Below are positions 2 to 18,567 of a stretch of DNA of 52,338 nucleotides, one piece after another. Origin of the DNA: Tubiluchus corallicola. Taxonomy: Eukaryota; Animalia; Priapulida. The translations under genes and the position numbers were made by a program. Under the pieces are notes generated by a model. The model made no database searches. It was given only the letters and a program-made list of their open reading frames with translations, and had not been told where the DNA came from. Positions within the stretch are counted from its first letter, which is position 1; the number at the start of each line of letters is the position of its first letter. The stretch lies in NCBI GenBank assembly GCA_030141605.1, contig JAQGDQ010002415.1, positions 6,581-58,918 on the forward strand. The letters are read 5' to 3'.

Positions 2-2845
2 AGCCCCGCCCATTATATACCCAAACATTTCCCAACCTTTAGCATCATTAGCCTCTCCTATCTTGTAGCCACTATATCCTCCTATTATTGCTCCTACAAC
101 GGCTGCTGCTAAAAATATCCACTCCCCATCAGGATCTACAAACATCATAGGGCTATTGCCCATAGCTTGGTAAGGTGAGTGCATCTGCAAAGCAGGATCT
201 ACTGCAAACCACCTTCCCAAATTAGCATCGTACTGTCGTGCGTGAAAATCGTGCAAGTTAATATTAAAATACTCCAAATGCTCCTTGCCCGTGTAGAGGT
301 ATTGGCTTTTTACATTATCAGGTAGTTCATTTCTACTTAGTTTCTCTATCGTTTGTCCATAAGGGTAGTAAGCCGTTTCTTGTAGCACCTCGCCCTTGTT
401 GTCAGCAACTACTCGTGTATGCCCCAAGTGGTCGGTGAGTAACACTGCCTTTGTGTCCTCTTCCTCACCCTTCAAGGTATAGCCTAAAGGGTTACTCACA
501 AGTACAAGCGTATCATTAATATACAGATACGCACCTTGATAATCGTATTTTAGCAAGAGGCTATCGTTTTTGTTAAATATCTCACGTCTTAAAAGTGAGC
601 CATCCGCTATGTAGGTGTTTACTATCTTTCCTTTGCCTACTACCTCCATTGTATCAGGTAGGTTGATGTCGTTGTAGCTAATACGTAGTCCCTTGTAGCT
701 ATCCTCCACCAAGTTACCCAACTCATCATAAGTATAAGTGCCTAGCACTTCTTCGGGTGTTTGGTCTTTTTCATCGTGCGTTCTGCGTAGGTTCTCTTGT
801 ATGGCAAGGGTGTCTTTTAGGTCTATAATGCCGTCACCATCCGCATCCATATAGCTAAACTGTGGGGTACTGGTAATAGTTGTGTAGGGCTTCCACTCCG
901 TGCCTTGCTCATCTTCGTCCCTTGGGGTGGCTGTGCTTCCATAGTGCAAGCCCAATGGCAATATGTCGGCTGGCTCTACTAAGCCGCTATTGTCCATATC
1001 ACCCGGATATACTGTTATCTTTTGCAGGCTTTTACGGTGTAGAGTGGTGAGTTGGTTGCCCGTGTATTCATACTCCAAATCATCCAAGTCGCCATACACT
1101 TCATTACGTAGATGTCCCTTGCGGTGTAGGGTAGTAATGTTCCCGTGTTTGTCGTAAGAGTAAGCTGTGTTGTAAGTGTTCTCCTCTTTTGTGTCTTGGT
1201 AGTAGATAGCTCTTGTCAGTTGGTTAGCATCGTCATAAGAGAAGGCATAGCCTGATAGGGGTGTGTTTTTGGTCTTCCACTCCATAGCTGTAATGTTGCC
1301 GTTGTACATAGGGGTGTTGCTCATATACTCGTGAGGCTCGTCATACTCTATCCTTTCGTAAAAAAGCTGTTCGTTTTTGTCGTTGTTAGTTTCTATTTGG
1401 GTAAGGCGGTAGTGGAAGTCGTAATGGTAGTTTGTTCTTATTTGTCCTTCATACAGTCGTTCATAGCTTTTGTTGCCTTTTTCATCGTAGCGGTAATAGG
1501 CTATTTCATAGGTGTTTTTGTCTCCCTGCTCTTGGTAGTGGATGGATTTCAACATGTCGTTGTGGTAGTATTGGTAATCCTTACGTGCAAAGTGTTGCTT
1601 GTCAAAGTCTAAGAAGTTTTTGTAGGTAAATAGTTGTCTTACTCTGCCATCGAAATGGTAGTTGGTAAATACTGCGTCTATTCCGCCTATGTTGTTGGAG
1701 GAGAAGGATTGTACTACTCTGTTGTATTTGTCGTAGTATATTACGCTTTCTATCCATTGGTCGGTGCCAAGTATGCGGGTTCGTGTGCCTGTTACTTGTG
1801 TCTTTACGTTGTGATAGGGCTTGCCAAGGGGTTCGTAGGGTGGTGCTGACTGTGCAAAGGGGAAGTCGTAGTCGTCGTAGTGGGTTTCTGATAGGGGTAT
1901 CTTTTTTCCGTCTTTTTTTATGCCTGTGGCTATTACGCGGCTGTAGCGGTCGTAGTCTATGTAGGAGGTGTTGCCTTCTGTGTCTTCTTCTTCTATCAGT
2001 CTGTCTAAGTGGTCGTAGCTAAGGTGTATGGTACCTGCTTGTGGTATGTGTTTGCGGATAAGGCGTCCTTTTTTGTCGTGGATGAATTGATAGACGTAAT
2101 GGTGATTGTTGATATCTCCTTTGGATAGTGGGGGGAGTATGGCGGTAAGGTTGCCATAGTGAAAGTCGTAGTAGTAGAGTGTGGTTAGGGTTTCTTTGTT
2201 TATCTGGCTTTCTCTTTTGAATAGTTGACCTTTGTATGAGGTGTATGTGGTGTGTTGTATGCCTTGAGGGTCGGTGGTACTGACTATGCTTATGTAGCCG
2301 GGGGGGTATTTTTTGTCTTCGTATTTTTCGGTGAATGCGTCATATTCTTTGTGTAGGAAGATGTCGGTGTTGGCGTAGCGTTCAATTTTGGTAGTGTGGT
2401 TTGTGCCTATTTGGTATTTCTGTCCAAAGCCACCTTGTTCTATTACTTGACCGCGTGGGTTGAATATGCTTTGTGCGCTGGGTATGTCTGTGTGGGCTTG
2501 GTTTAGTATGTTTTCCCAGTTGTGTAGGTAGTCGCCTTTGATGTTGAGTTGCATTGGCATATAGCTAAAGGGTTGTCTGCCTGCTATGTCGTATTTATGA
2601 AATTCTATGTGGTCGTTTTGGTAGATGGAGGCGTTCAGGTGGTTGGTTTGTAGGGGGCGGTCGGCTCCATCGGTGTAGATAATGGTGGTTGAGGCTGCTG
2701 CTGGGTTGGTGGTATTGCTTAGCTCATAGGCACTCATCCCTGATACTTTTGCTCGTTTTATGCGCACGTAGTTTTGGTCTCGGCTCTGCGGGTACAGAAC
2801 GCTGCACAAGTGCAGAAAGGCCAAGAGTAAAGCAATGGGTCTCAT
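2..2845 (-). CDS. DUF6443-type Rhs repeat-associated core toxin, 3' end beyond window edge; internal dockerin-like insert
   Basis: Translated by hand from ATG at 2845, no stop seen before the window edge, which explains its absence from the ORF track. Signal peptide MRPIALLLAFLHLCSVLYPQ; DUF6443-like IYTDGADRPLQ and ILPP; YD repeats; YNGNITAMEW; Rhs core LTDHLGHTRV..YYPYG..YLYTGKE..HARQYDANLGRWFAVDP..SPY..GNSPMMFVDPDGE. Confidence 0.93.
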   Translation of the reverse strand, partial: MRPIALLLAFLHLCSVLYPQSRDQNYVRIKRAKVSGMSAYELSNTTNPAAASTTIIYTDGADRPLQTNHLNASIYQNDHIEFHKYDIAGRQPFSYMPMQLNIKGDYLHNWENILNQAHTDIPSAQSIFNPRGQVIEQGGFGQKYQIGTNHTTKIERYANTDIFLHKEYDAFTEKYEDKKYPPGYISIVSTTDPQGIQHTTYTSYKGQLFKRESQINKETLTTLYYYDFHYGNLTAILPPLSKGDINNHHYVYQFIHDKKGRLIRKHIPQAGTIHLSYDHLDRLIEEEDTEGNTSYIDYDRYSRVIATGIKKDGKKIPLSETHYDDYDFPFAQSAPPYEPLGKPYHNVKTQVTGTRTRILGTDQWIESVIYYDKYNRVVQSFSSNNIGGIDAVFTNYHFDGRVRQLFTYKNFLDFDKQHFARKDYQYYHNDMLKSIHYQEQGDKNTYEIAYYRYDEKGNKSYERLYEGQIRTNYHYDFHYRLTQIETNNDKNEQLFYERIEYDEPHEYMSNTPMYNGNITAMEWKTKNTPLSGYAFSYDDANQLTRAIYYQDTKEENTYNTAYSYDKHGNITTLHRKGHLRNEVYGDLDDLEYEYTGNQLTTLHRKSLQKITVYPGDMDNSGLVEPADILPLGLHYGSTATPRDEDEQGTEWKPYTTITSTPQFSYMDADGDGIIDLKDTLAIQENLRRTHDEKDQTPEEVLGTYTYDELGNLVEDSYKGLRISYNDINLPDTMEVVGKGKIVNTYIADGSLLRREIFNKNDSLLLKYDYQGAYLYINDTLVLVSNPLGYTLKGEEEDTKAVLLTDHLGHTRVVADNKGEVLQETAYYPYGQTIEKLSRNELPDNVKSQYLYTGKEHLEYFNINLHDFHARQYDANLGRWFAVDPALQMHSPYQAMGNSPMMFVDPDGEWIFLAAAVVGAIIGGYSGYKIGEANDAKGWEMFGYIMGGA

Positions 2846-2861: not shown

Positions 2862-5123
2862 TTATTTAACTCTCATTATAAAGGCTAATACGTAGTAGGG
2901 AGGTATAATATCAAAATTATCAGTAGTTACTTTGTCTGCTGGCGATTTTAACCCGTCCTCTCCTCCATTGCTTACTCTACCACTAAAAGAACTATTCGGG
3001 TGGGTGTGTCTATCTTCATTATTCTCAGATGTAGTAGTAGCATCTCTGGTTTCATGAACTCCTCTATCAGAGCTCCTGCTACCTCCTGTCTTTCTATTAG
3101 ATGGAGTGGATTCATAAGTATGTGTATGACTCCCTGAAGAGGTTATATGTATACTTGCGTCATTGCCTCTTACAGAATGATGATGTTTAGGAATATGATT
3201 CTTAGATAATCTAAATGTAGCTGTAGAGCTACTGCTGCCTCCTTCTGCATTCACATTGTTATAATCACCACTGGCAGCATCATACGCCACAATAAACCTA
3301 CCACTTAAGTTGGGGGTCGTTATGAGTGAACCATTAATATCCGTGTCTGTTCTACCATCACACAAAGCCCACCCATCAGGTATAGTATTAGGGTCTCCGC
3401 TCCACATTATAATGCCTCCTATGGGTATGGTGCCGTAGCCTACAAATTGTCCTTGTGTTTCAATATTGTCTTCTGCTATTATTTTGCCTTCTGTGGCAAT
3501 ATCATTGGCAGTTTGTATGCTTTCTACAAAAAGGGTATCTACTTCTACATTGGAAGATATTACTCCATCTACCCTTACTACTTCACTTACTATTAATGTA
3601 TCAGCAATAATGCTACTTGTTTCTAAGTTTTCTACTTTCACATAGTTTTGTTCAAAGTCGCCCTCTATGAGTGTGTTGGTTCCACTGCCTATCATTAGTT
3701 TGTTGCTTTCGTTATTTAGGTTCTGCCCTACTTTGTTACCTATTACTATGTTGTTGTAGCCATTGTTCCCTTGTGCTGCTTTGTCTCCTATGTATATATT
3801 GCTACCACCTGTTGTATTGCTTTTGCCTGCTTCGTTGCCAATAAACACATTGCCACTAGCCGACAAGCTATTTAGCCCTGCACGGTAGCCTATAGCTATG
3901 TTGTCATTGTTGGAAGTAGCATCTGGGTTTATACCTTGCAGTGCCTCTGTGCCAATAACTACATTTCGCTCTCCACTGCTTTTTTCGGCTGCTTTGCTAC
4001 CTATCACCACACTATAATTGTTTGCTCCTTCTCGACTAGCGTATTTTCCTATGACTACTGCACCTGTGCTGTTTTTTGCTTTGGATGCTTTACTACCTAC
4101 AATTACATTATCAGAGGATAGTGTATATTTCCCTGCCTCGTCGCCTACAATTACATTGTGTGAGCCAGCGGAATTTAATTGCCCTGCCTCTGTACCTATC
4201 ATTACATTAGAGGTAGAGGCTTGTGTGGTGTTTTGTCCTGCTCTTTTACCTACAAAGGTGTTGCGTTCGCCTTGTTCTCCACTGTTAATCTTTTCTGAGC
4301 CTATCAATACGTTGGTAGTATCTATCTCTATACTGCCTGCTATCATATCTTCTAAGGCTTGATTGTTGAGACGGTAAGGCTCGTTCCACGCTCCATAAGT
4401 AGTATCGCCATTTATATCTATTTCTATAAGGCGCAACTTTGCCCATAGGTCGCCTTCCTTTCGTTCTAAGGTCCAATTAGAAGTAGCCGCACTATCAGGA
4501 GCATACATCTTTTCAACTGAGCAAGGGTCTATGGTTACCTCCAATTTACCATCCACTATTTGCAGTGTATTACCCAATACTACGCCTCCTCTGGTGCTAT
4601 GGCTAGCAATAGGTAGTTCATAATAGTTGGCATTGTTTTCTACCGAAAGTAGTTTGGCCAACAAACTATCAGCAAAGTTATTGTCCGAGTATGTAGCACG
4701 ATGCTCTATGCCTAGTAGCTTTTGATAGAGGCTATCTATAAAGTTATGCTCAGTGTAGTTCAGACTGTCTAACTTGATTTTAAGAACGTAAGTAAAATTT
4801 TCTTCGGAGTACTTAATACTGTCTAACTTTTCTTTGTGAGAAGTTGTGAAGTTGTGGTCGGTTTGTGAGGTGGCTCTTAGGTAGATAACACCTTCGCCTT
4901 GTTGCCCTTGATAGATTTCTAATCCATCCTCGCCTTCTGCTTTTATCTCATAATTGTAGGTAGCATTGATAAGGTCTTTAAAATCCTGTCCATTGGGTTT
5001 ACTACCATCTTGAAACTTGGAGTGTAATTCACTGGGGGTTTTTCTCTCTATTTGAGAATAAGCAGTGGTGTTAAGGAACACAAAAGCAATAGCAACTGCA
5101 AAAAATTTCACTGTATTTTTCAT
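2862..5123 (-). CDS. Secreted phage/eCIS-like tail fibre protein (YadA-like head repeats, tail collar domain, HxH tip)
   Basis: Signal peptide MKNTVKFFAVAIAFVFLNTTAYSQ (ATG 5123); NF..KLxxI repeats; YELPIASHSTRGGV; many N(V/T)xIG repeats; collar IPIGGIIMWSG..IPDGWALCDG..TPNLSGRFI; HxH motifs; terminal PPYYVLAFIMR. Confidence 0.85.
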   Translation of the reverse strand: MKNTVKFFAVAIAFVFLNTTAYSQIERKTPSELHSKFQDGSKPNGQDFKDLINATYNYEIKAEGEDGLEIYQGQQGEGVIYLRATSQTDHNFTTSHKEKLDSIKYSEENFTYVLKIKLDSLNYTEHNFIDSLYQKLLGIEHRATYSDNNFADSLLAKLLSVENNANYYELPIASHSTRGGVVLGNTLQIVDGKLEVTIDPCSVEKMYAPDSAATSNWTLERKEGDLWAKLRLIEIDINGDTTYGAWNEPYRLNNQALEDMIAGSIEIDTTNVLIGSEKINSGEQGERNTFVGKRAGQNTTQASTSNVMIGTEAGQLNSAGSHNVIVGDEAGKYTLSSDNVIVGSKASKAKNSTGAVVIGKYASREGANNYSVVIGSKAAEKSSGERNVVIGTEALQGINPDATSNNDNIAIGYRAGLNSLSASGNVFIGNEAGKSNTTGGSNIYIGDKAAQGNNGYNNIVIGNKVGQNLNNESNKLMIGSGTNTLIEGDFEQNYVKVENLETSSIIADTLIVSEVVRVDGVISSNVEVDTLFVESIQTANDIATEGKIIAEDNIETQGQFVGYGTIPIGGIIMWSGDPNTIPDGWALCDGRTDTDINGSLITTPNLSGRFIVAYDAASGDYNNVNAEGGSSSSTATFRLSKNHIPKHHHSVRGNDASIHITSSGSHTHTYESTPSNRKTGGSRSSDRGVHETRDATTTSENNEDRHTHPNSSFSGRVSNGGEDGLKSPADKVTTDNFDIIPPYYVLAFIMRVK

Positions 5124-5168
5124 TATCAAATTCTGTTTTATTGGTGTATATTTATATTTTTTTCATTT

Positions 5169-8100
5169 TCAATTCTCTGTTACATATCTTATATGAAAAG
5201 TAGTGGCAGTATCGTTTCTAATATACATTTGTCCTATTCCTAACTCTTCTATGTCCAAAGGGTCGTAGGAGGCTTTGTAGTTATACTGATATTGTTCCAG
5301 AGCGTCTTCATCTTCGTTTCCTATGTTCGAAAGTCTACCAAAATCGTCATAACCATATTTTATAGTCTGCTCTTGTGAAGAAACTTCTTGTTGCAGTTGT
5401 AGTAGGTTGGTGTATGCATAATTAGAAACATACTTACCTGCATCTACAGAGTGTGTTTTGGGTAGATTACTCGAGGTGTAAGAATAGGAAATAGGCACGG
5501 CATCTTTACCAGTATATTTCAGTATGTTGCCTTTGTTGTCGTATTGGTTGAAGGTGGTTTGTAACTCATAATTATCTGCAAGGGTATTGTAAGTTTCTAT
5601 GCTTTCTACAATGTAGTCAGGGTCTTCATTGCTTCCTAATACATAGTTGATTTTTTGTCCTGATAGGAGTTTCCCGTTTTTTCTTATCTCTTGCTGTACT
5701 GGGGCAATAATATGCTTGTCCTCAAAGTATTGTTTTATAGGCTGATTGCTCTGATGCACATAAGTAATAGAAGTTTCTGTGGTCTCTACATTATCACTGG
5801 CAATTACTTTTACAGGTAGGTTTTTGTATTTACTGTATTTTTCATATTCATAGGTGGTAGTGGTAGTGATAGGCTGCCTTGCACTTTCGGCATAATCTTC
5901 GCGAATAGTCCCTTCCAAAGTTTTAGTAACTGCAGCTATATCATAGGTGCTATGACGTAAAAGATTATCATTTTTATCTATCTGTACATTGTAGCCTCCA
6001 ACAGAGTTGCTCCATTTTAAACTATAATTGTTAGAAGTTTTATTGAGTAAGTTATCTTTATTGTCATAAGTTTCTTGTTGATAGAGATAAGTCCTATACA
6101 CATCTCTGTCTGTAATGGTAGAAAAAAGCAGGTAGTAAGAACTAGAAGGATCTTGGCCTGCTATTACATCAGGTTTATTGTCTTCATCTTTGGCTGTTTT
6201 AAAGTAAGAAATAGTTTTGCCTTGTTCTTTGTTTGTCTGCATTACCTTGCCAAAACCTACTATACCCCCGCCTGTGGCTAACTGTTCGCCTCCGCCCTTA
6301 GGATAAAGTAAATAATGATAATAGTCCCAAAAACGTCCAACCTCATACTTTCTATTTCTGTTGAAAGGTATAATACCTTCCTCATAGTTATAAGTTATTT
6401 CTTCCATTACCTCTCCTTTTTCGTCATCCGTAGCTTTTATATTTTTTATAAAACAACCATATTCACTAGTATAGTAGTCGAAGGTTTTGTGCATTCCTGT
6501 AGGGTAGGTAATGGAGGAAAGCAAACCATTCTCTATATTGTTAAGCGAAGGGGCATAATTATATTCTTCGTACTCGTTTATACCCTCGAATTTTACTCTT
6601 AACATTTCCTTTAACGATGATGAATATTCTATATTCCGTTCTTCATTTTTTTCATTGCTGTCTATATCTAGCTCACTGGGGTATGTAAAGTTGTAAAAAG
6701 TAGATTTAGGACTTGTAAAATCTACATAGTAACCATAAAAATTCTGTTTGTAAGAAAGTCTATAAGGTAGTTTACTAGGGTTAATGTAATTAAATTTAAA
6801 AGGATTGATATTATCTCCATAGATGTCTTTCTCCTCTATTTCTGTAAGGAACATCCTTTGTGTAGTACCTGCTTGTTCTATAAAGAAACTACCACTGTGC
6901 CATGCATTTGTTTTAAAACGAAATGCAGGCGAGGAGGTAGTAACAGAATTATGATAATTATAAGTAAATGTATAGCTTTTAATAAAATCATCATCTTTCG
7001 TTTTTATACGTATTTCTCTAAGAAAACTACCTACCTCATCTATCATATCTTTTCTGTTTTCTACTGTAAAGAATTCTACTTTGTGGTTGCCTCCTTCTAC
7101 CTCTTGCAACATAGGGGTATGGGCTGTAACCAAACTTTTAGCAATTCCTATTTCATTACGAGGAACTGGGGACTCATATCTGTAAAACTTATTATCCTCT
7201 ATTTTGGGATAAGAATTCTGAATACAAACACCTGACAGCCTACTGCCTTGATAATACCGACTTGTTTGTTTTTTATAAGAAAAGGTTACTTTATCATTAA
7301 AAGCAGGTTGTATTATCTCTATTAAATGCCAAGAGGACCTATAACTATACGATTGACTACTATTGATTACACGTTTTTCCTGCAAATCCAAAGAATAAGC
7401 GGGAATTTTCTTGATTACTATCCCCAGAAAATTTCTCTTCCAAATTTCCTCAAACTTTGAAGTATAACGTACAATTTCACTTGTATTTTCTATTTCCATC
7501 TCTTCTATGGCTTCTTCTTCATAGCCAAATCTGTAAATAGTGCCATCTTCGGCAGTAATAGTAAAGCCATTAATGGTTGAAGAAGAAGCATCCATCTCTA
7601 TTTTCAGGTTGTTATCGTTGGCAAGAATATTAATTCTGTTAGAAGCGGCTCTTCTGCTAATAGTGAATTTACCGTTTAAGTTGCCACAAGAAAAATAAAA
7701 TATATCAGGGTGGAGATCGTTATCTTTCATTTCTTCGACTGATGCCCAATTATCCCAATAGCCTATCTTTTCTTTTGTTTCATTTTTACTATCTACTACA
7801 CCGTCATTATTATCTTCAATAATAGATTTTACTTGGGTTGTTTTCTCATCGGGGTAGCCTTTTACTACACGAGTAATCACTCCGCTTGCTTGTAAGTTCC
7901 ATCCCATACCTACCCAAGAAGCTAGGTCATCTACTCTTACTCCGTTGGAATGATACACCAAGCTAATGGGCACGGATAGGTGGGTACTTTTCAGGGTGTA
8001 CAAAGGAATGCCTACATTAATAGCTCCTGTGTAAAGGCTAGAGGCGGTAGAGGCAGAACGTATCAGCCCTGCTACTGTGGGTGAGGGTACAGTAACCAAA

Positions 8101-8342
8101 CTACTACTACCAGACAAGGCTCCGAACTCGTCACTGCTCATTGAAGTAGGAACACCTTTATGTAAGGATTTTAACATCAAATGACTGGTAGTATCTTCTT
8201 CTGCTGCTGTATCTTCCTGTTCAGCTGGAAGATAGGGCTGGGCAGAAGTCAAGCTAAAAGAGAAAAGAAAAAAGAAAAAAACACTCTTTCCTCTCCCATA
8301 GATACAAAATAAAGACAAAAATATAAATGCAAGTGTTTTCAT
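5169..8342 (-). CDS. YD/Rhs-repeat shell protein without toxin core (TcB-like partner of DUF6443 Rhs proteins)
   Basis: PSPTVAGL..SLYTGAINVGIPLYTL..VPISLVYHSNGVRVDDLASWVGMGWNLQASGVITRVVKGYPDE, PDIFYFS, LSSITYPTG, YDNKGNI, YGYDDFGRL; no DPxG core motif. Confidence 0.85.
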   Translation of the reverse strand: MKTLAFIFLSLFCIYGRGKSVFFFFLFSFSLTSAQPYLPAEQEDTAAEEDTTSHLMLKSLHKGVPTSMSSDEFGALSGSSSLVTVPSPTVAGLIRSASTASSLYTGAINVGIPLYTLKSTHLSVPISLVYHSNGVRVDDLASWVGMGWNLQASGVITRVVKGYPDEKTTQVKSIIEDNNDGVVDSKNETKEKIGYWDNWASVEEMKDNDLHPDIFYFSCGNLNGKFTISRRAASNRINILANDNNLKIEMDASSSTINGFTITAEDGTIYRFGYEEEAIEEMEIENTSEIVRYTSKFEEIWKRNFLGIVIKKIPAYSLDLQEKRVINSSQSYSYRSSWHLIEIIQPAFNDKVTFSYKKQTSRYYQGSRLSGVCIQNSYPKIEDNKFYRYESPVPRNEIGIAKSLVTAHTPMLQEVEGGNHKVEFFTVENRKDMIDEVGSFLREIRIKTKDDDFIKSYTFTYNYHNSVTTSSPAFRFKTNAWHSGSFFIEQAGTTQRMFLTEIEEKDIYGDNINPFKFNYINPSKLPYRLSYKQNFYGYYVDFTSPKSTFYNFTYPSELDIDSNEKNEERNIEYSSSLKEMLRVKFEGINEYEEYNYAPSLNNIENGLLSSITYPTGMHKTFDYYTSEYGCFIKNIKATDDEKGEVMEEITYNYEEGIIPFNRNRKYEVGRFWDYYHYLLYPKGGGEQLATGGGIVGFGKVMQTNKEQGKTISYFKTAKDEDNKPDVIAGQDPSSSYYLLFSTITDRDVYRTYLYQQETYDNKDNLLNKTSNNYSLKWSNSVGGYNVQIDKNDNLLRHSTYDIAAVTKTLEGTIREDYAESARQPITTTTTYEYEKYSKYKNLPVKVIASDNVETTETSITYVHQSNQPIKQYFEDKHIIAPVQQEIRKNGKLLSGQKINYVLGSNEDPDYIVESIETYNTLADNYELQTTFNQYDNKGNILKYTGKDAVPISYSYTSSNLPKTHSVDAGKYVSNYAYTNLLQLQQEVSSQEQTIKYGYDDFGRLSNIGNEDEDALEQYQYNYKASYDPLDIEELGIGQMYIRNDTATTFHIRYVTEN

Positions 8343-8355
8343 TTGTTAAAACCTC

Positions 8356-9130
8356 TTAGTTTAAGATAATTTTCTTACTGACAATAAAATCATTATAGAC
8401 CGTTTGTATCAAATAAATACCTTTGGGAAGAAAAGATAAATCAAAAGTAGCTATATCTTTTTTGGGTACGGTGGTTCGCACCACAGACCCCTCCTCTCAT
8501 TGCTCTAACTTCTACTATCTCTTTTTCTACCCCGTATTCATATTTGATATTTACAATACCATTTGTAGGGTTAGGATAAAGTATAAATTGATATAGCTCA
8601 GTGTTTTTCGAAAGGTGTTTCAAAGAATATTCGCCTATGTAAATAGTATCGGAAGTAGAAAGAAGAGGAATGGCTTCTCCTTTGTGATTGTTTGCCATAT
8701 AAGGATGAGCAGACACAGAGATAAAGTCCTTGGTTAAACCCTCTTTTATCTTTACAAAAAGAGAGAGTACATTTTCTTTACTGTCTAAAAAAAAGTTCTC
8801 ATTCAAACCTGTAACAGCATAACGCAGCAGCCCTTCACTTTGATTTTGTTGATATAGGTCAATATAATCCTTGCCTCGCTCTCCAAAAGTGCTGCCTGTG
8901 GAAAGTGCAATAGAATTAGTGTCCAAGTCCTGTGGGTTATAACGAATGTCAAAAGCTATACCATAAAGAAGTTCTATATTATCTTGAGGGTAGAAATTAA
9001 AAACCACCACCTCATCCAAACGCTCACGAGATAAAACAGGAGTAGGAGTTTCTACTTTTAGCAGCTCTTGCGAGAAAACAGAACAATTTAATAGAAAGAA
9101 AGATATTAAATTTAAGCAAAATAATCTCAT
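8356..9130 (-). CDS. Cohesin-like domain protein with T9SS type-A C-terminal domain, frameshifted at about 8488-8491 (pseudogene or sequencing error)
   Basis: Likely start MRLFCLNLISFFLLNCSVFSQ (ATG 9130); LYGIAFDIRYNP..GLLRYAVT cohesin-like beta-sandwich; CTD begins FILYPNPTNGIVNI and continues in the shifted frame as ..FDLSFLPKGIYLIQTVYNDFIVSKKIILN* (stop 8356-8358). Confidence 0.75.
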
Positions 9131-9394
9131 AAGACTAAAAGATTTTAAGAAATTAGGTGTAAAATATCTTAACTTAAAAAACACAAGTTTACATAAAAAA
9201 ACTCTTTTGTACAAAAAAATATATTAAGAATTAGCAATATATTCTAAGTAGTTTAAAACCATCCTTAAATTCAGTTACTGCTAAGTACAATACAAGTTTT
9301 AGAAACTTTCATCTTTTAGTTTTTGGCAATAAAAATAGGCAATGAATGAAAAATTAAATATTAGTATACCATTACCTTATTTTGTTATAAAGAC

Positions 9395-9464: not shown

Positions 9465-10508
9465 ATGAACAAAAAAGTAAGTATTAAAGATATTGAAAAA
9501 GAAACAGGTATTTCAAAAGGCACAATCCATAGAGTATTACACAAAACAGGCTATGTAGCAGACGGAACTAGAAAAAAGGTACTACAAGCAGTAAAAAAAT
9601 TAAACTACAAACCAAACTTACTTGCAAGCACATTAGCTTATAATAAAAAACGAACTTTTGCTACTTTAATTCCAGACCCTGCAGAAATTTCTTTTTGGAA
9701 AGATGTAGACAAAGGCTGTAAAAAAGCCATCAAAGAACTTTCTTTCTTTAATATAGATGTACAACGTTTCTATTTTAGCTTAAAAGACAATGACTTCGAA
9801 GAGCAAAGCCAAAACATTTTATCCATAAAAGACGTATCAGGAGTTGTATTTGTCCCTACCTTTAAAGAAGCATCTTACAAGTTCTCTTCACAATTGGAAC
9901 GCCAAAAGGTTCCATTTATAAATATAAATGTGCACGACAGAAACCTCCCCTATATTGCCTATCTCGGACAAGATGCTTATGGAATAGGACAACAAGGAGC
10001 TTTTTTAATAAACTCTGTTGTTCCCGAAGGAAAAACTTTAATAACCAACTTATATTCACAAAATAAACACTCTATCTATAGAGAACGAAGAATAAAAGGA
10101 TTCTCTGATTTTTATGGAAAAATAGGTAGAAAAAACGATATTATACTATTTGAAGCCTCTACCAACAATGAAAAAAACTTAGTAAAATCATTAAAAGAAG
10201 TACTTGATAAACATACGATTAGCTCTATATTTATTAATAACTCGCGAGGATATCTAATCGGTAATTTTCTGAAACAACACAATTATAAAGGCATATACTT
10301 TGTTGGAATGGATTTAATAAAAGAAAACATCTCATTGATGAAAGAAGACTATATTGATTTTCTTATCTCACAAAAGCCTGAAACACAAGGAGAACAAGGA
10401 CTAATGCTTTTGTTTGATGTGCTAATAAAAAAACAAGCTATTGAAAAAATACAATATCTCCCCATAGATTTAATAAACAGATACAACTTAGAATATTATC
10501 ACATATAA
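9465..10508 (+). CDS. LacI-family transcriptional regulator
   Basis: N-terminal HTH VSIKDIEKETGISKGTIHRVL..LNYKPNLLASTL followed by a periplasmic-binding-protein-like sugar-binding domain. Confidence 0.93.
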   Translation: MNKKVSIKDIEKETGISKGTIHRVLHKTGYVADGTRKKVLQAVKKLNYKPNLLASTLAYNKKRTFATLIPDPAEISFWKDVDKGCKKAIKELSFFNIDVQRFYFSLKDNDFEEQSQNILSIKDVSGVVFVPTFKEASYKFSSQLERQKVPFININVHDRNLPYIAYLGQDAYGIGQQGAFLINSVVPEGKTLITNLYSQNKHSIYRERRIKGFSDFYGKIGRKNDIILFEASTNNEKNLVKSLKEVLDKHTISSIFINNSRGYLIGNFLKQHNYKGIYFVGMDLIKENISLMKEDYIDFLISQKPETQGEQGLMLLFDVLIKKQAIEKIQYLPIDLINRYNLEYYHI

Positions 10509-10534
10509 TTATTTTAAAAAAAATATTAAAAAAG

Positions 10535-10733
10535 TTGCAAAAGATACTTGCGCATATTATATTTGTACTTTAATTGTGTGAACGCCCCCGCTTTTATTTA
10601 TCCTAATTAATAGCAAAAATAACCCTTGATTAGTTAGATGAAAGTACGTGAACGTACACGTGTTTTGTTTCACTAACAAAGCTAAAAATAAATAAACAAA
10701 ATTTTTAGTTCAATAAAATATGAGAACGCTCAC
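10535..10733 (+). promoter_or_regulatory. susC1 promoter (-7 TATATTTG 10558-10565) with three putative LacI operators
   Basis: GTGAACGCCCCC 10578-10589, GTGAACGTACAC 10648-10659, GAGAACGCTCAC 10722-10733; CG-centred pseudo-palindromes. Confidence 0.7.
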
Positions 10734-10753
10734 GATAAAAACTTACTAACTTT

Positions 10754-13741
10754 ATGAACAATATGTTACCATTCGCAAAAAAAGCATTTTATATTTTCAT
10801 CATTAGTTTCTTTTGTTTTTCAAGTACTTTCTCGCAATACACAATTACAGGTAGGGTATTTGACAAAGATAATAACGATGAAACTTTACCGGGAGTAAAC
10901 ATAACCATAAGGGGTACCTCAATAGGTACAATCTCCGACATAAATGGATCATATACTATTAGAATAAATGAGAATATAAAGTCTCCTGTACTCGTTTTCT
11001 CATACATAGGATACAAGACCCAAGAAATAAACGTAGAAGGAAGAATAATAATCAATGTGCATTTATCTACTGATGCCCTACTATTGGACGAGCTGGTAGT
11101 AGTAGGATACGGAACACAGTCGAGAAGCAACATAGTAAGTGCTATTTCATCTGTTGAGGCAGAGGAGATGCAAAAGATACCCACTACCGACGTAGGAGAA
11201 ATGCTTAGAGGAAGAGCAGCAGGGGTGCAAGTTACAGTTGATAACGCCTCGCCGGGAGGTTCATCCAATATTCTTATCCGAGGACAAAGCTCCTTATCTG
11301 GCGGCAACGACCCTCTTATTATTTTAGATGGAGTGCCTGTAAGTAGCCTCAACGATATAAACCCCAGAGATATAGAATCATTAGAAGTATTAAAAGACGC
11401 ATCATCACAAGCCATTTATGGAGCAAGAGCCTCCAATGGTGTTATTCTCGTCACTACAAAAAGAGGAAAAGAAGGAAAGGCAGAAGTAAGTTACAACGCC
11501 TATGTAGGTTTTCAGAATGCAGTAAAAAGAAACTTTGACATATACAATGGAGATGAATATGCTCAATTTAGAAGAGAAGCATTTAGAACAGACAATAATG
11601 GATATATACCCGACGAAGACATATTTACTTCCTTAATGTTAGATGTTTTAGAATCAGGACAGTTTATTGACTGGGAAGATGAATATTTGCAGAAAAACAC
11701 ACTTGTTACACAGCACGATATAAGTATAAGAGGTGGAACAGATTTAACCAAAGCGGCTTTCAGTTTCGGTTATTTCGATAACGAGGGTGTACTACCCAAT
11801 TCTAATTACAACCGCTACAACATTCGTCTGAATGTAGACCAAAAAGTAAATAACTGGCTAGATATGGGAGCCAATTTCTATTACTTTATAGGATATAGAG
11901 AAAGAGAACCTTTTAACCGTAATGTTTTTACTCTCCCTCCCATATCAAAAAAATATGATGACAATGGTAACTTATTAACTTTTGTAACAGATGAAGGAAC
12001 TTATTTCAACCCCTTCATAAATATTGAAGAAACTATTAGGGAATCTGTTTCTCATAAGGGAATTTACAATATCTTTTTTGATGCAAGGCTGCCATTTGAC
12101 GTAAAATACCGTTTAAATGCTAGTTGGAGAACATGGAACGAGACTGCAGGAAACTATCAGTCCTCATTAGAGCAAAGTGGAAGGTCTGTAGGAGGTAAAG
12201 CAACTCATACCAATGGGGAATCTCGTGAATATCTGATAGAAAATATATTTACTTACGATAAAAAAATTAACAAGCACCATATGGATTTCACAGGTGTACA
12301 TAGTATCAACCAACGTTATTGGGGACAAACTACTAACAATGCTTTCGGATTTCCCAACGACTTATTAGGATGGAAGGGTATAGCAGGAGCAGAAACACAA
12401 ACCATCAGCAGAAACGAAACACAAAGAAGGCTTGTTTCCTTTATGGGCAGAGCAAGATACAATTATGACAACAAGTATATACTAACACTTACAGCAAGAG
12501 CAGACGCTTCTTCTGTTTTTGGAGCTAATAACAAATGGGGCTACTTCCCTTCCGCAGCAATAGGCTGGAATGCTCATCAAGAAGATTTTTTGAAAGACGT
12601 TTTGTGGCTAAGCCAATTAAAAACAAGAATAAGTTACGGACAGACAGGTAACGAAGCCATTAGCCCCTACCAAAGCCTTGGAACATCTACCGAATACTAT
12701 TATGTTTTTGGAGACCAAGTGGGATCAGGGTTTGCTCCTGACTATCAACTACCCAATCCCAACTTAAAATGGGAAACCTCTACCACACTTAATACGGGTA
12801 TTGATTTTGGGTTATTAAAGGGACGTGTGCAAGGAAGTTTTGAGTATTACAATATTCAAACTACTGATTTGTTGATAAACAGAAGTATCAATGCAGTAAC
12901 AGGTTATACCATTATGTTAGAGAACGTGGGCAGAGTTGAGAACCAAGGAATAGAGTTATCTGTAACAGGACATATTATAGACAACAAAGACCTTCGCATA
13001 TCACTTACGCCAATTTTCACACTCAATAGAAACAAAATAAAAGAGCTCTATGGTGCATTAGACACAATACCTAATGGAAATTCAAACACAGGATGGCGTA
13101 TTGTAGGAGAGCCTATTAACAATTATTACGATTTTGTGTTCGATGGAATATGGCAAGAAAACGACGATATACTCAATTCGCACATGCCCACAGCAAAACC
13201 TGGAGACATTAAAGTGAAAGACGTAAATGGAGACGGAGAAATAACAGATGCTGATAGGGTGGCAATGAGTAGAGTACCAGATTGGATAGGCTCTCTGGTG
13301 CTTAATGTAAATTACAAGAATCTTGATTTTTCAGCTGAACTCTATACTGTTCAAAATCTAACAAGAGTAAACCCATATTTACACCAACATACTCTTGGAG
13401 GTGATTTAAGAGGGCAGCAAAACGGTATAAAAAGAGACTATTGGACACCTGAAAACCCCTCCAACACAGCACCAAGACCTTCTGACAAAGCGTCAGACCC
13501 TAACATAAGAATTAGTGCCTATGAAAACTCATCTTACGTTAGATTAAGATCGATGGTATTGGGCTATACCTTTCCAGAAAAGTGGTTGAATCCTTATAGA
13601 ATTAAAAATCTTAGAGTATATACCTCAGTAACCAACCCATTTACCTGGATGAACTACCAATCGTACAGTCCTGAGAAAGACCCCAGTAGCTATCCAGAAG
13701 CATTTACCTACAACTTTGGTATAAGACTTACTTTCTTATAA
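10754..13741 (+). CDS. susC: SusC/RagA TonB-dependent transporter
   Basis: CarboxypepD-like N-terminus, LDELVVVGYG, plug DIESLEVLKDASSQAIYGARASNGVILVTTKRG, NPNLKWETS. Confidence 0.96.
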   Translation: MNNMLPFAKKAFYIFIISFFCFSSTFSQYTITGRVFDKDNNDETLPGVNITIRGTSIGTISDINGSYTIRINENIKSPVLVFSYIGYKTQEINVEGRIIINVHLSTDALLLDELVVVGYGTQSRSNIVSAISSVEAEEMQKIPTTDVGEMLRGRAAGVQVTVDNASPGGSSNILIRGQSSLSGGNDPLIILDGVPVSSLNDINPRDIESLEVLKDASSQAIYGARASNGVILVTTKRGKEGKAEVSYNAYVGFQNAVKRNFDIYNGDEYAQFRREAFRTDNNGYIPDEDIFTSLMLDVLESGQFIDWEDEYLQKNTLVTQHDISIRGGTDLTKAAFSFGYFDNEGVLPNSNYNRYNIRLNVDQKVNNWLDMGANFYYFIGYREREPFNRNVFTLPPISKKYDDNGNLLTFVTDEGTYFNPFINIEETIRESVSHKGIYNIFFDARLPFDVKYRLNASWRTWNETAGNYQSSLEQSGRSVGGKATHTNGESREYLIENIFTYDKKINKHHMDFTGVHSINQRYWGQTTNNAFGFPNDLLGWKGIAGAETQTISRNETQRRLVSFMGRARYNYDNKYILTLTARADASSVFGANNKWGYFPSAAIGWNAHQEDFLKDVLWLSQLKTRISYGQTGNEAISPYQSLGTSTEYYYVFGDQVGSGFAPDYQLPNPNLKWETSTTLNTGIDFGLLKGRVQGSFEYYNIQTTDLLINRSINAVTGYTIMLENVGRVENQGIELSVTGHIIDNKDLRISLTPIFTLNRNKIKELYGALDTIPNGNSNTGWRIVGEPINNYYDFVFDGIWQENDDILNSHMPTAKPGDIKVKDVNGDGEITDADRVAMSRVPDWIGSLVLNVNYKNLDFSAELYTVQNLTRVNPYLHQHTLGGDLRGQQNGIKRDYWTPENPSNTAPRPSDKASDPNIRISAYENSSYVRLRSMVLGYTFPEKWLNPYRIKNLRVYTSVTNPFTWMNYQSYSPEKDPSSYPEAFTYNFGIRLTFL

Positions 13742-13759
13742 AATAAAACACTATAAAAA

Positions 13760-15307
13760 ATGAAAAATAAAATATTTATATATTGTATAATACTCATTTT
13801 CTCATCGAGTAGCTGTAAAAAATGGTTGGAAGAAACCAACCCTACCGAAGTAGACAACAGCTTTGTTTATAATACACTTGCGGGTTTAAAAACTAATGTT
13901 GTAGCTCTATACAACAGAGAAAGAAGTATTATGAGTTCAAACGAGTCTAAAGATCACACTCTACTATGGGTTATAACAGACCTTGCATCTCCAAGAACAG
14001 GATATCCAAGAGAACGCTATTATGACCCTGAAAGATTTAATCCAGTAAGACTAGGGGCAGCTGAATCTCTTTGGAAGTTAGGTTATAGAATTATAGAGAG
14101 AGCTAATGCCATTATCAAAGCTGCTCCTAATGTGGATATGAGCGAAGAAGAAAGAAACCAAATATTAGCAGAAGCTAAATGCCATAGAGCACAAGCTTAT
14201 TTCACTTTAATACGTCTTTTCGACAACATATACTTAACCACTGAACCTACCTCACCAGAATCAGCACTAGATACTACTATTGTATATAGTCCTGCTCTGG
14301 CCGAGGATGTTTTTGATTTGATTAACAACGATTTAGGCTTTGCCATAGAACACTTAGAATGGACAGACTTACCGGGTAGATACACCCAAGCATCAGCAAG
14401 GCACATAAGAGCCAAAGCAGCTATGTGGCAAGAAGACTGGGATACTGCAATAGAACACTGCGAAGCAATTGTAAATAGTGGTAATTTTCAGTTGCTTGAT
14501 ACAGATATCGTATTTGGCAAACATACAGGAATAAGAAATCATGATGAAGCAATTTATGTTCAGCAATTTGACTTTGCAAGAAAAGAAATAGGAGGTGGAG
14601 GTGATAAACACAATTTATTCTATATTTTTGTAACCCGCTACTATGAAAGAGATGGAATAATACACGATGTATCACAAGGTGGAAACTGTCTTGGATGGGC
14701 AATACCCAATAACTATCTATTAGGATTGTATGACCAAACAAACGATAAGAGATACAATGACTATTATAGAAACTTTTTCATCTACAATGACCCCAATAAC
14801 TTACCTAACAATACAGATTTAGGGGATACCCTAAAAATAAGTTTAAACGAAAATCCTATTAATAGTAGGAGGGCCGCTATAAGTTTGTGGAAAAATTATG
14901 ACCCTGCAGGACCTGATGATAAACGAGAAGGGTTTAGCGATATAATTGTATATAGACTGGCAGAAACACACTTAATAGCCGCAGAAGCTTATATGAGGAA
15001 TAACAATAACGACAAGGCAGTAGAACACATTAACAAAGTGAGAACAAGAGCAGGGATAAGTGATTTGGAAACAGTAACAGAGCAGGATATAATGGATGAG
15101 AGAGCCAGAGAGTTAGCTTTTGAAGGACAAAGATGGTTCTTCCTGAAAAGAATAGAGAAACTATTAGAGCAAGTAAGAAACTATGCAGGGAATGAGGGGG
15201 ACAATGATGAGGGTAGAGATTTCATACAAAACTACAATGTAAGATGGCCTATACACGACTCGCAAATAAAGCTAATGAGAGAATTTCCTCAAAATCCAGG
15301 TTATTAA
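13760..15307 (+). CDS. susD: SusD/RagB lipoprotein
   Basis: Lipobox SSSC, RAQAYFTLIRLF, YRLAETHLIAAEA, ERARELAFEGQRWFFLKR, C-terminal QNPGY. Confidence 0.95.
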   Translation: MKNKIFIYCIILIFSSSSCKKWLEETNPTEVDNSFVYNTLAGLKTNVVALYNRERSIMSSNESKDHTLLWVITDLASPRTGYPRERYYDPERFNPVRLGAAESLWKLGYRIIERANAIIKAAPNVDMSEEERNQILAEAKCHRAQAYFTLIRLFDNIYLTTEPTSPESALDTTIVYSPALAEDVFDLINNDLGFAIEHLEWTDLPGRYTQASARHIRAKAAMWQEDWDTAIEHCEAIVNSGNFQLLDTDIVFGKHTGIRNHDEAIYVQQFDFARKEIGGGGDKHNLFYIFVTRYYERDGIIHDVSQGGNCLGWAIPNNYLLGLYDQTNDKRYNDYYRNFFIYNDPNNLPNNTDLGDTLKISLNENPINSRRAAISLWKNYDPAGPDDKREGFSDIIVYRLAETHLIAAEAYMRNNNNDKAVEHINKVRTRAGISDLETVTEQDIMDERARELAFEGQRWFFLKRIEKLLEQVRNYAGNEGDNDEGRDFIQNYNVRWPIHDSQIKLMREFPQNPGY

Positions 15308-15331
15308 CATAAACAACAAACAATATAAATT

Positions 15332-16927
15332 ATGAGAAGAACAGCATTTATAGTAGCAAGTGTCCTTTTATTCGCTTCTTGTAAAAAAGACAGTGAAGGG
15401 AACAGTATGCCACCAGTCAATAATAAAGAAGGAACATATTATATAGATAATGTAAACGGAGATAATAATAACACAGGAGAATCTCCCGAAAAAGCGTGGA
15501 AAACAATAACAAATATGAATAGGCTTACTTTTCAGCCGGGGGATAAAATATTGCTAAAAGCAGGAGGAGTTTGGGATGGAGTTATTGCCCCAAAAGGAAA
15601 AGGAGAAAAAGACAACCCCATTGTGATAGATATGTATGGAGAAGGTGAAAAACCCCTCTTAAATGGTAACGGCAGACATCCCTTTACTGTTAGGCTACAA
15701 GACATTGAGTATTTTGAATTGAAAAATTTAAGGATTACCAACAAAGGAGAAGAAAGAGCAGAAAAAGGTGTGTTGAGAGTAGGAGTTCACATTATAGCAG
15801 AGGATATGGGAGAAGTTAATCATATTCACCTAAAAGGCTTGGAAATATATGATGTAAATGGTTTTTACGGAGTTTCTGGCGATGACTTCAACGCAGGCAA
15901 AGAAAACGGAGGTATACTCATTGAAATAAAAGGAAGCGAGAAACCCACTTATTTTAATGGTTTGGTCGTAGAAGACTGCCACATACACAATGTAGAGCAA
16001 TCGGGTATGACCAATAAATCCTCTTGGTCGAGCAGAACCTTTACCGATGATGGTGATTGGACACCTAGCCTTAATGTAGTAATACGCGGCAATCGCTTTG
16101 AAAAAATAGGAGGCAACGGACTGATACTAAGAGTTGCGAAATCTCCTCTGATAGAAAACAATCTGTTCGATAGTTGTGGTTTGTTTACCACAGGCAATGC
16201 CAGCTTTTCGTTCAACACAGACGACGCCCTTTGGCAATACAATGAAGCTCGCTTTACACACAATACGGGCGAAGATGTAGATGCTGGTGGGTTCGATAGT
16301 GATTATCGCTCAAAAGGAACTATCTTTCAATACAACTACTCTCACGATAACGAACACGGGGGCATACTTATAACGGGTGGACCCTCCAACCTTACTACCG
16401 CACCATTTAATGATGGAACTATCGTCAGATACAATGTATTTGCTAATAACAAAGCCCACATTGTTCGCACATCAGGATTGGCTACTAACACTCTTATACA
16501 TAATAATGTGTTTTATACGGATGCTACTTTAGAAGATAAGATGGACTTAGGAATGGTTTATCATAAAAGTTGGAGTGGAACTTCTGACAATACAGAATAT
16601 TACAACAATATTTTTTACTCAGAAGTGGCTTGCGACCTCTTTAACAATGAAGGTAATAGCACTAACAATACATTTGACAATAATATATTTTACTACGAAA
16701 ATGGAGGAGGCACTGAGATACCCACAGGCAATGACAATATACAAGAAGACCCTTTATTTAGCTTTGGCTTTGGTTTAGAAGGAGCATTTAGATTTCAACT
16801 AAACGAAGGCTCACCCGCTATTGATGCAGGGAAGGAAATACCAGACAATGTGCTAAAAGATTATGCAGGTAACACTGTGCCTGTTGATGTTATTGACATA
16901 GGTGCTTTTGAAAAGAAAAAGCAATAA
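15332..16927 (+). CDS. Lipoprotein with right-handed parallel beta-helix (putative polysaccharide lyase/hydrolase)
   Basis: Lipobox FASC-KKD; YYIDNVNGDNNNTGESPEKAWKTI; PGDKILLK; DAGGFDSDY..QYNYSHDN; SPAIDAG..DIGAFE. Confidence 0.8.
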   Translation: MRRTAFIVASVLLFASCKKDSEGNSMPPVNNKEGTYYIDNVNGDNNNTGESPEKAWKTITNMNRLTFQPGDKILLKAGGVWDGVIAPKGKGEKDNPIVIDMYGEGEKPLLNGNGRHPFTVRLQDIEYFELKNLRITNKGEERAEKGVLRVGVHIIAEDMGEVNHIHLKGLEIYDVNGFYGVSGDDFNAGKENGGILIEIKGSEKPTYFNGLVVEDCHIHNVEQSGMTNKSSWSSRTFTDDGDWTPSLNVVIRGNRFEKIGGNGLILRVAKSPLIENNLFDSCGLFTTGNASFSFNTDDALWQYNEARFTHNTGEDVDAGGFDSDYRSKGTIFQYNYSHDNEHGGILITGGPSNLTTAPFNDGTIVRYNVFANNKAHIVRTSGLATNTLIHNNVFYTDATLEDKMDLGMVYHKSWSGTSDNTEYYNNIFYSEVACDLFNNEGNSTNNTFDNNIFYYENGGGTEIPTGNDNIQEDPLFSFGFGLEGAFRFQLNEGSPAIDAGKEIPDNVLKDYAGNTVPVDVIDIGAFEKKKQ

Positions 16928-16959
16928 ATGTTTATATAGAAACAAAAAAATAAAGAATT

Positions 16960-18531
16960 ATGAAAAGTATAAAATTGTATTTATCATTATGCAGTCTATT
17001 TGTTACACTTATTTTAAGTTGTGAAAAAGAAGACGACTTTACCAATCCACCCAACCCCGGTGAGCCTAACATTACTAAGTTTGCAACAACAATAGATGAA
17101 GAAACAGGTCAAGTAGTTTTTAGCTTTGGTGGTGAGAATATCCATCTTTACAAACTATATTTTGGTGATGCAGAAAGCACAGAAGAAACCTCCGAAGGCG
17201 AAGAGTTAGAATTTACTTACAGCGATTTAAAAAACATCGCTTATGAAGCTATGTTAATAGGCTATGGCCCTCGCACCAAAGACACTGCCCGCACAGCAAT
17301 AGATGTAACCATAGGCACTCCCGAAGATGTGAAAGTAGAAACAGAGGTGGCAGAAACAGGAGGAGTTAAATTTACACTTACAGGAAACTATGTAGTTTCG
17401 TACCACATAGACTTTGGCGATGAAGAGGACACCTCTATTACTGAAATAGCAGACCCAACAGTAGTTAAACACATCTATGCAAATGCAGGAACATATACAG
17501 CAAAAATAACAGCCCATGGACGTGAAGGTAATGTAGACACAACTGTCTCTATTAAAATAGAAGAAATAAAAGATACTCCAAAAAACCTTTTTGCCTCTGC
17601 TGTATCTAACGAAGCAGGAATTGCTACACTTACACTTAAGGGAGATTATGTTGTTCGTTATGAAATAGACTGGAGAGATGATAGCGGTACAGAAATAGTA
17701 GATGACTCAGAAGACTCAATAACTATTACTCATTTATACAAAGAAGATGGAGATTATGACATAACAATAAACGCTTTTGGCTCAAACGAAGAGTCCATTG
17801 AATTCTCCATTGATGATCCATTAAATATAAACATTACTTATGTACCACTAGGTTTCTATGCACATTGGGCAGAGCCGGAAAATGTTGCTCCTTTCGATAT
17901 AAATAGAACAACGAATAGTGATGGTATTTTAGGTGTAATAGAGGGAGTACTTAGTGGTAGTGGTGCTATGTTTACTGATAGAAGCCTTGATGACAAAGGT
18001 ATACCTCGCTACGATCCTAATGATGATAAATGTGTAAGGATAACAACACCTTCTCAAGGTGGTCCAAATGCTCTACTTTTTAAATTATATGGACACTCAT
18101 TACTTGAGCCTTTTGGAGGAAAACTAAATTTGAAATATCAAAACAAATTTAAATTATTAGTTCATGCCTTTAGGAAAGATTCCAATGAAGGAACTGGAGA
18201 AGATCCTCCTCACAGAGTAAGATTGGTGTTGCAAAATAGGGGTGATAATATTGGAGATGTGTGGGATGATGAAATATATGTAGAAAAAAAATGGGATGAA
18301 AATGATCAATGGTTTGATTTAGAGTTTGACTTTTCTGACGATAGTGGCGAGTGGGTAAATGCAGATGGAAGTAACACCAAACCTTCTGAAAGAACAGATT
18401 TAGATTGTATTGCAATATACTTTTATCAAGACGGCACGGCAGCAAGACATAGAGTCCACTTTGACAAATTGGAATTATTAAATGTAGACGGCACGTCTAA
18501 TTTTGATTACAGAATACCGAATATTCCTTAA
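16960..18531 (+). CDS. Surface glycan-binding lipoprotein with three PKD-like domains
   Basis: Lipobox ILSC-EKEDD; repeats YKLYFGD, YHIDFGD..HIYANAGTY, YEIDWRD..HLYKEDGDY; lies downstream of susD. Confidence 0.7.
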   Translation: MKSIKLYLSLCSLFVTLILSCEKEDDFTNPPNPGEPNITKFATTIDEETGQVVFSFGGENIHLYKLYFGDAESTEETSEGEELEFTYSDLKNIAYEAMLIGYGPRTKDTARTAIDVTIGTPEDVKVETEVAETGGVKFTLTGNYVVSYHIDFGDEEDTSITEIADPTVVKHIYANAGTYTAKITAHGREGNVDTTVSIKIEEIKDTPKNLFASAVSNEAGIATLTLKGDYVVRYEIDWRDDSGTEIVDDSEDSITITHLYKEDGDYDITINAFGSNEESIEFSIDDPLNINITYVPLGFYAHWAEPENVAPFDINRTTNSDGILGVIEGVLSGSGAMFTDRSLDDKGIPRYDPNDDKCVRITTPSQGGPNALLFKLYGHSLLEPFGGKLNLKYQNKFKLLVHAFRKDSNEGTGEDPPHRVRLVLQNRGDNIGDVWDDEIYVEKKWDENDQWFDLEFDFSDDSGEWVNADGSNTKPSERTDLDCIAIYFYQDGTAARHRVHFDKLELLNVDGTSNFDYRIPNIP

Positions 18532-18567
18532 AAACCAACCTTAATTATTAATTAAAATTAAAAAACT

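Follow-up and report, generated by a model that had tools for sequence, protein, structure and literature searches.

The closest described relatives of the element treated here are the eBAP1 and eBAP2 anchors of extracellular contractile injection systems (eCISs), represented by Pvc13, AfpX13, and Cis13 in the accessible text of PMC12923769, PMC12546770, and PMC8894136. As far as the available text of these sources goes, residues 29–55 of Pvc13 are modelled by cryo-EM on the C-terminal region of Pvc12 as the baseplate contact (PMC12546770), the Cis13 trimer is contacted by a C-terminal extension of Cis11 (PMC8894136), and eBAP2 may bind homologues of Pvc11 (Results of PMC12923769), with binding of the fibre via its N-terminus being predicted in a passage of PMC13266070. 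Here, we describe a cassette that carries such an anchor on a fibre encoded beside an Rhs shell. It lies on the minus strand of a stretch of 52,338 nucleotides from the Tubiluchus corallicola assembly GCA_030141605.1 (contig JAQGDQ010002415.1, positions 6,581–58,918; hereafter the window, to which all coordinates refer), and consists of four consecutive genes: a small protein of the type IX secretion system (T9SS) type, a YD-repeat protein, a fibre, and a DUF6443/RHS-core protein. The anchor is a genuine docking module of the eCIS/phage kind, and with a probability of roughly 0.6 a short GIG-containing tail of the YD protein docks the fibre in one Rhs clade, giving a fibre-bearing, T9SS-exported toxin shell. 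The two motifs, the gene order, and the co-occurrence are observed directly.

The cassette resembles four known types of system. With the eBAP1/eBAP2 systems it shares an N-terminal helical anchor on a collar-tipped fibre, and a neighbouring gene whose terminal tail resembles that of Afp11-type baseplates (as in the G498 locus described below and in SalCis11, 9rce), whereas it differs in the leader of the fibre, in the YD shell partner, and in having no contractile genes in the cassette or in nearby open reading frames (ORFs) of the window. Family scans of the four cassette ORFs, and the related cassettes, revealed no sheath, tube, spike, or baseplate genes; the ORFs beyond 9.4 kb were judged from translations or coordinates rather than by family scans, and locus content was seen up to the end of the window, which falls inside the Rhs gene. 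Bacteroidota loci for YD plus DUF6443/RHS-core toxins offer the same succession of YD gene and RHS core; leaders are present, the C-termini vary, small genes lie downstream, and relatives have orphan ends. What the clade of the cassette has beyond this is the GIG tail, a fibre bearing the anchor, the dockerin-like insert, and the cohesin-like protein of T9SS type. The BC shell of Tc/ABC toxins (YenB/YenC, TcdB/TccC) is likewise a two-part Rhs shell, and the model of the YD protein is nearest to TcB-type chains, but the cassette has no TcA translocon and attachment would instead use a peptide dock and a fibre. In the GIG-tail/anchor modules of phages (IMG/VR loci L095–L214) the tail similarly ends one gene and the anchor starts a downstream one, the difference being that the phage tail sits on small virion-type proteins, often directly or ~2.2 kb upstream of the fibre. 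The cassette would work like an eCIS baseplate–fibre joint, yet it is a variant of an Rhs locus and not an eCIS.

The fibre protein (755 aa; 2862–5129, minus strand) is composed of a leader, the anchor, a repeat shaft, and a phage collar-type tip. Its motif TPSEL...DLIN (5039–4965) falls within an eBAP2-like baseplate-anchor motif delimited by profile matches (4953–5039), and is preceded by a signal-peptide-like leader running from the ATG at 5123 (5055–5123; sequence pattern by inspection), so that the mature protein is predicted to begin with the Q at 5054, with cleavage judged by eye. The original prediction, made from the letters of the window alone, had located the fibre motif correctly and had set the mature start five residues further along. 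A leader followed by the motif was seen on inspection in all eight fibre orthologues, which, where their source gives a name, are tail fibre proteins of Ancylomarina and Labilibaculum; the window fibre also matches tail and tail-spike families of PHROGs (E 1e-15 to 5e-14) and the tail fibres 6ov6 and 9nxk of the PDB. When a profile was built from 34 phage fibre N-termini alone, the window fibre was the sole significant match in the six frames of the window (E 4e-6; next match, E 2.9). A joint anchor profile, A3, of 37 rows with the window fibre included, returned 13 PDB matches, the top three being Pvc13 residues 30–53 (9qgo, E 2e-4), tCIS All3316 residues 1–37, and AfpX13 residues 42–65; the Pvc13 match falls within the docked stretch, and these results bear out the proposal that the start of the fibre is a known baseplate-binding module, homologues of which dock baseplates in solved eCIS structures. 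In genome G498 the same profile finds a 244-aa fibre inside a full eCIS operon, behind a Baseplate_J protein with a variant of the tail at its end, and this length fits a G498 gene that the supplement of PMC12923769 assigns to eBAP2, giving 732 as the length of the trimer. At the level of sequence, the anchor of the window fibre is homologous to the eBAP2-type N-terminal motif of ~50 aa; an arrangement as a trimeric helical bundle bound to the C-terminus of a baseplate protein is known from homologues in the cited papers and would apply to the window protein by analogy.

The anchor family is large, comprising 9,919 clusters at E ≤ 0.001, with A3 matches in 86 of the 401 genomes of the order of G498. 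Repeated or internal anchor-like motifs occur in secreted proteins and also in two RHS-like-repeat proteins (P0198, P0238, P0199–P0208). In four loci (L308, L317, L321, L322) anchor-bearing fibre genes stand between TcA-type and SpvB/TcB-type genes, with no tail match, and such Tc-like loci may represent a second non-contractile toxin system with this anchor. A whole-fibre alignment scan of genome contigs was tried and rejected, collar domains having overwhelmed it, with one orthologue among its 78 loci.

The putative dock for the fibre is found at the end of the YD protein (1057 aa; 5169–8342, minus strand), which has a signal-peptide-like start and would form the TcB-like first half of the Rhs shell. 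The motif GIGQMYI (5240–5220, minus strand) begins 12 residues past the last YD repeat (YQYNYK), within a C-terminal tail that occupies 5172–5273 and has its GIG core at 5190–5240; the ORF runs to ...FHIRYVTEN, with the stop codon at 5169–5171. An extra tail after the last repeat had been noted from the letters and was confirmed, although the peptide quoted for it was too short. The pattern G[IV]GxM occurs once in the six frames of the window, and GIGxM has been retained in the YD protein despite a mere 25–29% identity to tailed relatives. In P0001, the closest homologue, a profile of 82 phage tails scores the tail with E 3e-8. In the monomer model the last 37 residues have a predicted local distance difference test score (pLDDT) below 50 and are unstructured, with 8 of the 49 alignment rows being tailed; a complex of anchor trimer and tail, run without alignments, scored 0.01; and a single-sequence fold of the fused junction gave an unusable pLDDT of 30.

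The tail and the anchor recur together in phages and eCISs. A pattern scan of viral contigs gave at least 120 stretches, 80 of them with flanks, and in 59 of the 80 among the matches listed the motif ends one residue short of the stop codon. Where at least 3 kb of downstream sequence was available, an anchor gene follows 39 of 43 C-terminal motifs as compared with 2 of 15 internal ones, again among the matches listed (Fisher p 7e-8), a count that near-duplicate contigs inflate and whose anchor profile took its seeds from these same loci. A relaxed form of the tail ends the upstream ORF in 24 of 31 anchor loci (the 30 best A3 loci plus L269, mostly of eCIS type) versus 1 of 1120 control ORF ends, the pattern having been fixed after its loci were viewed and about half of these being near copies from small genomes. 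The tail profile of phages and Rhs proteins aligns with that of eCISs (93.8%), and the SalCIS baseplate protein 9rce_A terminates in the tail. The association of both motifs, which the original prediction had named as its own test, is accordingly present in phage as well as eCIS loci. Its suggested test case, AlgoCIS, has neither motif: Alg11 aligned only to residue 1035 of 1050, without a tail, and the AlgoCIS fibre is a different protein. The suggested borrowing from contractile injection systems need not have had an eCIS as its donor, the pair being equally common in phages, where it sits on proteins other than baseplate J. Among the fetched loci and 150 representatives no natural protein chain joins tail and anchor. 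Taken as a sequence pattern, the ~14-residue tail is the likely partner of the anchor family in phages and eCISs.

In many viral loci, including L127, L145, and L171, a GIG-ended protein of ~95–100 aa is encoded ~2.2 kb ahead of the fibre that bears the anchor, as part of a conserved tail module; those of these proteins that were tested belong to no Pfam or PHROG family.

Within Rhs loci the tail accompanies the fibre. The fibre core occurs in 6 of 97 genomes of the family of G001, all of which have the adaptor (the small T9SS-type protein), the fibre, and the YD gene, and in the five whose junction is sequenced the YD and RHS halves are fused, with GIGxMx[LI]GxxFxV precisely at the seam. Three of five metagenome loci represent the same cassette, with the tail present in the one that reaches the junction (L323). 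All six fibre-linked relatives (five of five genome loci and L323) consequently carry the tail, as against none among the 25 loci obtained for the 27 other YD matches in this family, in line with the expectation that the tail should be commoner with a fibre than in fibre-less loci; no anchor was found in 20 wide regions around other YD loci, several of which ended at contig ends and one of which was of another Rhs type. All 11 close fused YD–Rhs proteins bear the tail and none of 13 distant matches does, while among wider YD homologues, considered without their neighbouring genes, it occurs in 1 of 53, namely P0001. This survey of tailed YD proteins covers the clade in question, the short tail alignment not extending to longer proteins outside it. 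When the tail was sought as a strict DNA pattern, 4 of 401 genomes of the phylum matched, one with a phage-type C-terminal tail; at the level of the order, 2 of 301 genomes contained the fibre core, one of the two in a phage-type fibre. In G068, G090, G066, and G005 the cassette's own anchor and tail are the sole ones found, and since cassette rows belong to the profiles, only the absence of further anchors and tails counts there; G006 has three additional anchors, and a sheath match was absent from four of the five genomes, G005 having a sheath gene.

Three tail-less YD–Rhs loci (L253, L255, L264) lie behind arrays of secreted fibre-like proteins without an anchor; their coiled C-ends are presumably chaperone-like, and two of the proteins gave no Pfam match.

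The two large proteins of the cassette have the characteristics of an Rhs polymorphic toxin, with both YD repeats and an RHS core (TIGR03696, TIGR01643, PF05593, and the fold). The AlphaFold2 model of the YD protein (pLDDT 72.3; predicted template modelling score 0.73) has the YenB/TcdB BC shells as its best Foldseek matches (E 7e-16, TMq 0.40), and the protein aligns with the N-terminal half of fused YD–Rhs proteins. The second half of the shell (2–2845, minus strand), whose toxin end lies beyond the window, matches DUF6443 (E 3e-12) and TIGR03696 (E 7e-13). No Pfam family, the SpvB-type B domain included, was found on the YD protein and no TcA in the cassette, so that the locus is not assigned to the Tc/ABC toxins. 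In the relatives the C-termini differ from one another, small genes follow downstream, and RHS ends occur as orphans, a combination known for polymorphic toxins.

The remaining two elements concern export. The adaptor (8441–9214, minus strand) is a putative cohesin-like protein with a T9SS C-terminal sorting domain, as suggested by sub-cut-off Pfam matches, and is 13–19% identical to its relatives. It is absent from the Atlas, whereas look-alikes there of the protein in the adaptor position of L093 are named cohesin plus T9SS domain (0.96). Neither the YD nor the fibre protein gave a sorting-domain match, sub-cut-off ones being confined to the adaptor. A dockerin-like double calcium-loop insert, indicated by weak Dockerin_1 scores, lies within the RHS repeats (791–1006, minus strand); all 11 close fused relatives have it, the two distant ones aligned lack it, and its pattern was not found in 20 control regions.

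These components can be combined into a mechanism of assembly and targeting. The shell halves and the fibre would cross the inner membrane by Sec, and after cleavage the anchor would lie ~9 residues in from the N-terminus so created, as it does in phage fibres. The variable C-terminal toxin would be enclosed by the YD and DUF6443/RHS halves, while the GIG tail at the seam between them would bind the anchor trimer and fix the targeting fibre to the shell; the tail is the likely binding partner, with the Rhs shell as the likely site of binding. The dockerin-like insert would clip the cohesin-like T9SS protein, which would export or display the complex, and the collar tip would attach to the target surface, probably that of other bacteria. 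Together, the cohesin-like T9SS protein and the dockerin-like insert in the cassette make a T9SS-exported, fibre-guided Rhs toxin complex likely. That the locus represents a new category of secreted weapon, a T9SS-exported Rhs container with a phage/eCIS dock, a swappable fibre, and a cellulosome-like export clip, with the GIG tail as the universal partner of eBAP2-type anchors, is a more tentative proposal, which we place somewhat below even odds. The literature searched, judged from listings and leaving subscription papers mostly uncovered, yielded no paper on a fibre-bearing or T9SS-linked Rhs system, and the word "Rhs" is absent from the main text of PMC12923769. How Rhs toxins without a type VI secretion system reach and choose their targets is an open question, to which a docked fibre would contribute the aiming, and the ~14-residue tail points to a partner for a very large anchor family whose attachment is otherwise modelled in the accessible text of PMC12923769. 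A fibre docked in this way would equip a secreted toxin with phage-style aiming.

A number of observations weigh against this reading, the late fixing of the relaxed tail pattern among them. The window tail reaches 2.4 bits (E 2.3) against the 82-row phage profile and so goes unscored, because four residues are inserted and the second conserved G is lost. The tail profile A2 had no match among PDB chains, and the solved contacts are not tied to the GIG motif, since the eCIS C-terminal profile stops on All3317 at residue 1169 of 1231, short of the tail, and Pvc13 docks on Pvc12. Anchors lack a tail match in 7 of the 31 loci, Tc-like loci included, and in 19 of the best 150 anchor-profile matches the motif lies past residue 12, often internal or repeated. 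On the side of export, the adaptor matches Por_Secre_tail with E 0.003 and Cohesin with E 0.04–0.08, and the insert matches Dockerin_1 with E 0.018 (2e-4 and 5e-4 in relatives), all below cut-off, with a profile of the adaptors finding no cohesin in the PDB. Finally, the tail is internal in the fused relatives, whereas the 59 C-terminal phage tails among the matches listed end one residue past the motif, and the eight tailed rows of the 49 form one clade (FastTree, support 100, tail columns excluded), so that the co-occurrence could be plain inheritance after one gain. This single clade, the internal position of the tail between conserved flanks, the divergence of the window tail, and the anchor-less fibre-like secreted proteins of L253, L255, and L264 would all suit a tail that is a hairpin or linker at the shell seam, gained once alongside the fibre gene, with the fibre acting separately or binding elsewhere, for example to the adaptor. 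We consider this rather improbable: tail-less YD/Rhs pairs are usual, which means that shell closure requires no hairpin, and the motif matches the phage/eCIS tail (through P0001 and by profile alignment) with its partner motif kept alongside.

Alternatively, the tail may dock the fibre in a complex that is never released, serving as a surface-tethered adhesin or contact-dependent weapon. The cohesin-like T9SS adaptor and the dockerin-like insert are consistent with tethering, and many T9SS cargos are surface-attached; a toxin, as suggested by C-termini that vary, small genes downstream, and orphaned RHS ends, would fit either arrangement. This is possible, if doubtful, and with regard to the docking step it is a sub-case of the fibre-docking explanation that we prefer. 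It is quite unlikely that the anchor works for a prophage or eCIS encoded at another place in the genome, leaving the Rhs tail as a decoy or relic, even though the pair abounds in phages and eCISs, G005 has its sheath gene, and G006 its three further anchors: the fibre carries a leader for secretion, which the aligned phage fibres lack, and searches of G068, G090, and G066, which are possibly incomplete genomes and for which the baseplate search had no positive control, revealed neither a further tail nor an eCIS baseplate end or a sheath. A chance likeness of the two motifs, both short and the window tail weak on its own, is the hardest of all to credit given the anchor match to the phage-only profile (E 4e-6), the P0001 tail (E 3e-8), the control rate of 1 in 1120, and the retention of both motifs across the clade.

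As regards the integrity of the sequence, one contig from run X1, which may be the window's own sample, matches positions 3638–7837 with zero differences, and since it spans the YD/fibre junction the latter is not an assembly slip. The adaptor frame breaks near 8492, with the remainder of the sorting domain just downstream in another frame; an X1 contig that differs there by two letters has no break, which makes an assembly slip probable. Over the RHS half (1–2826) the contigs are 3–4 times deeper than over the fibre and contain variant letters, which hints at additional copies of the RHS core or at additional strains, depth being no measure of copy number. The GC content of the cassette is 39%, as compared with 36% for the remainder of the window. 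The adjoining region (9465–21798) encodes a LacI-type regulator, a SusC/SusD-like pair, and secreted enzymes, and appears from its translations to be a polysaccharide locus.

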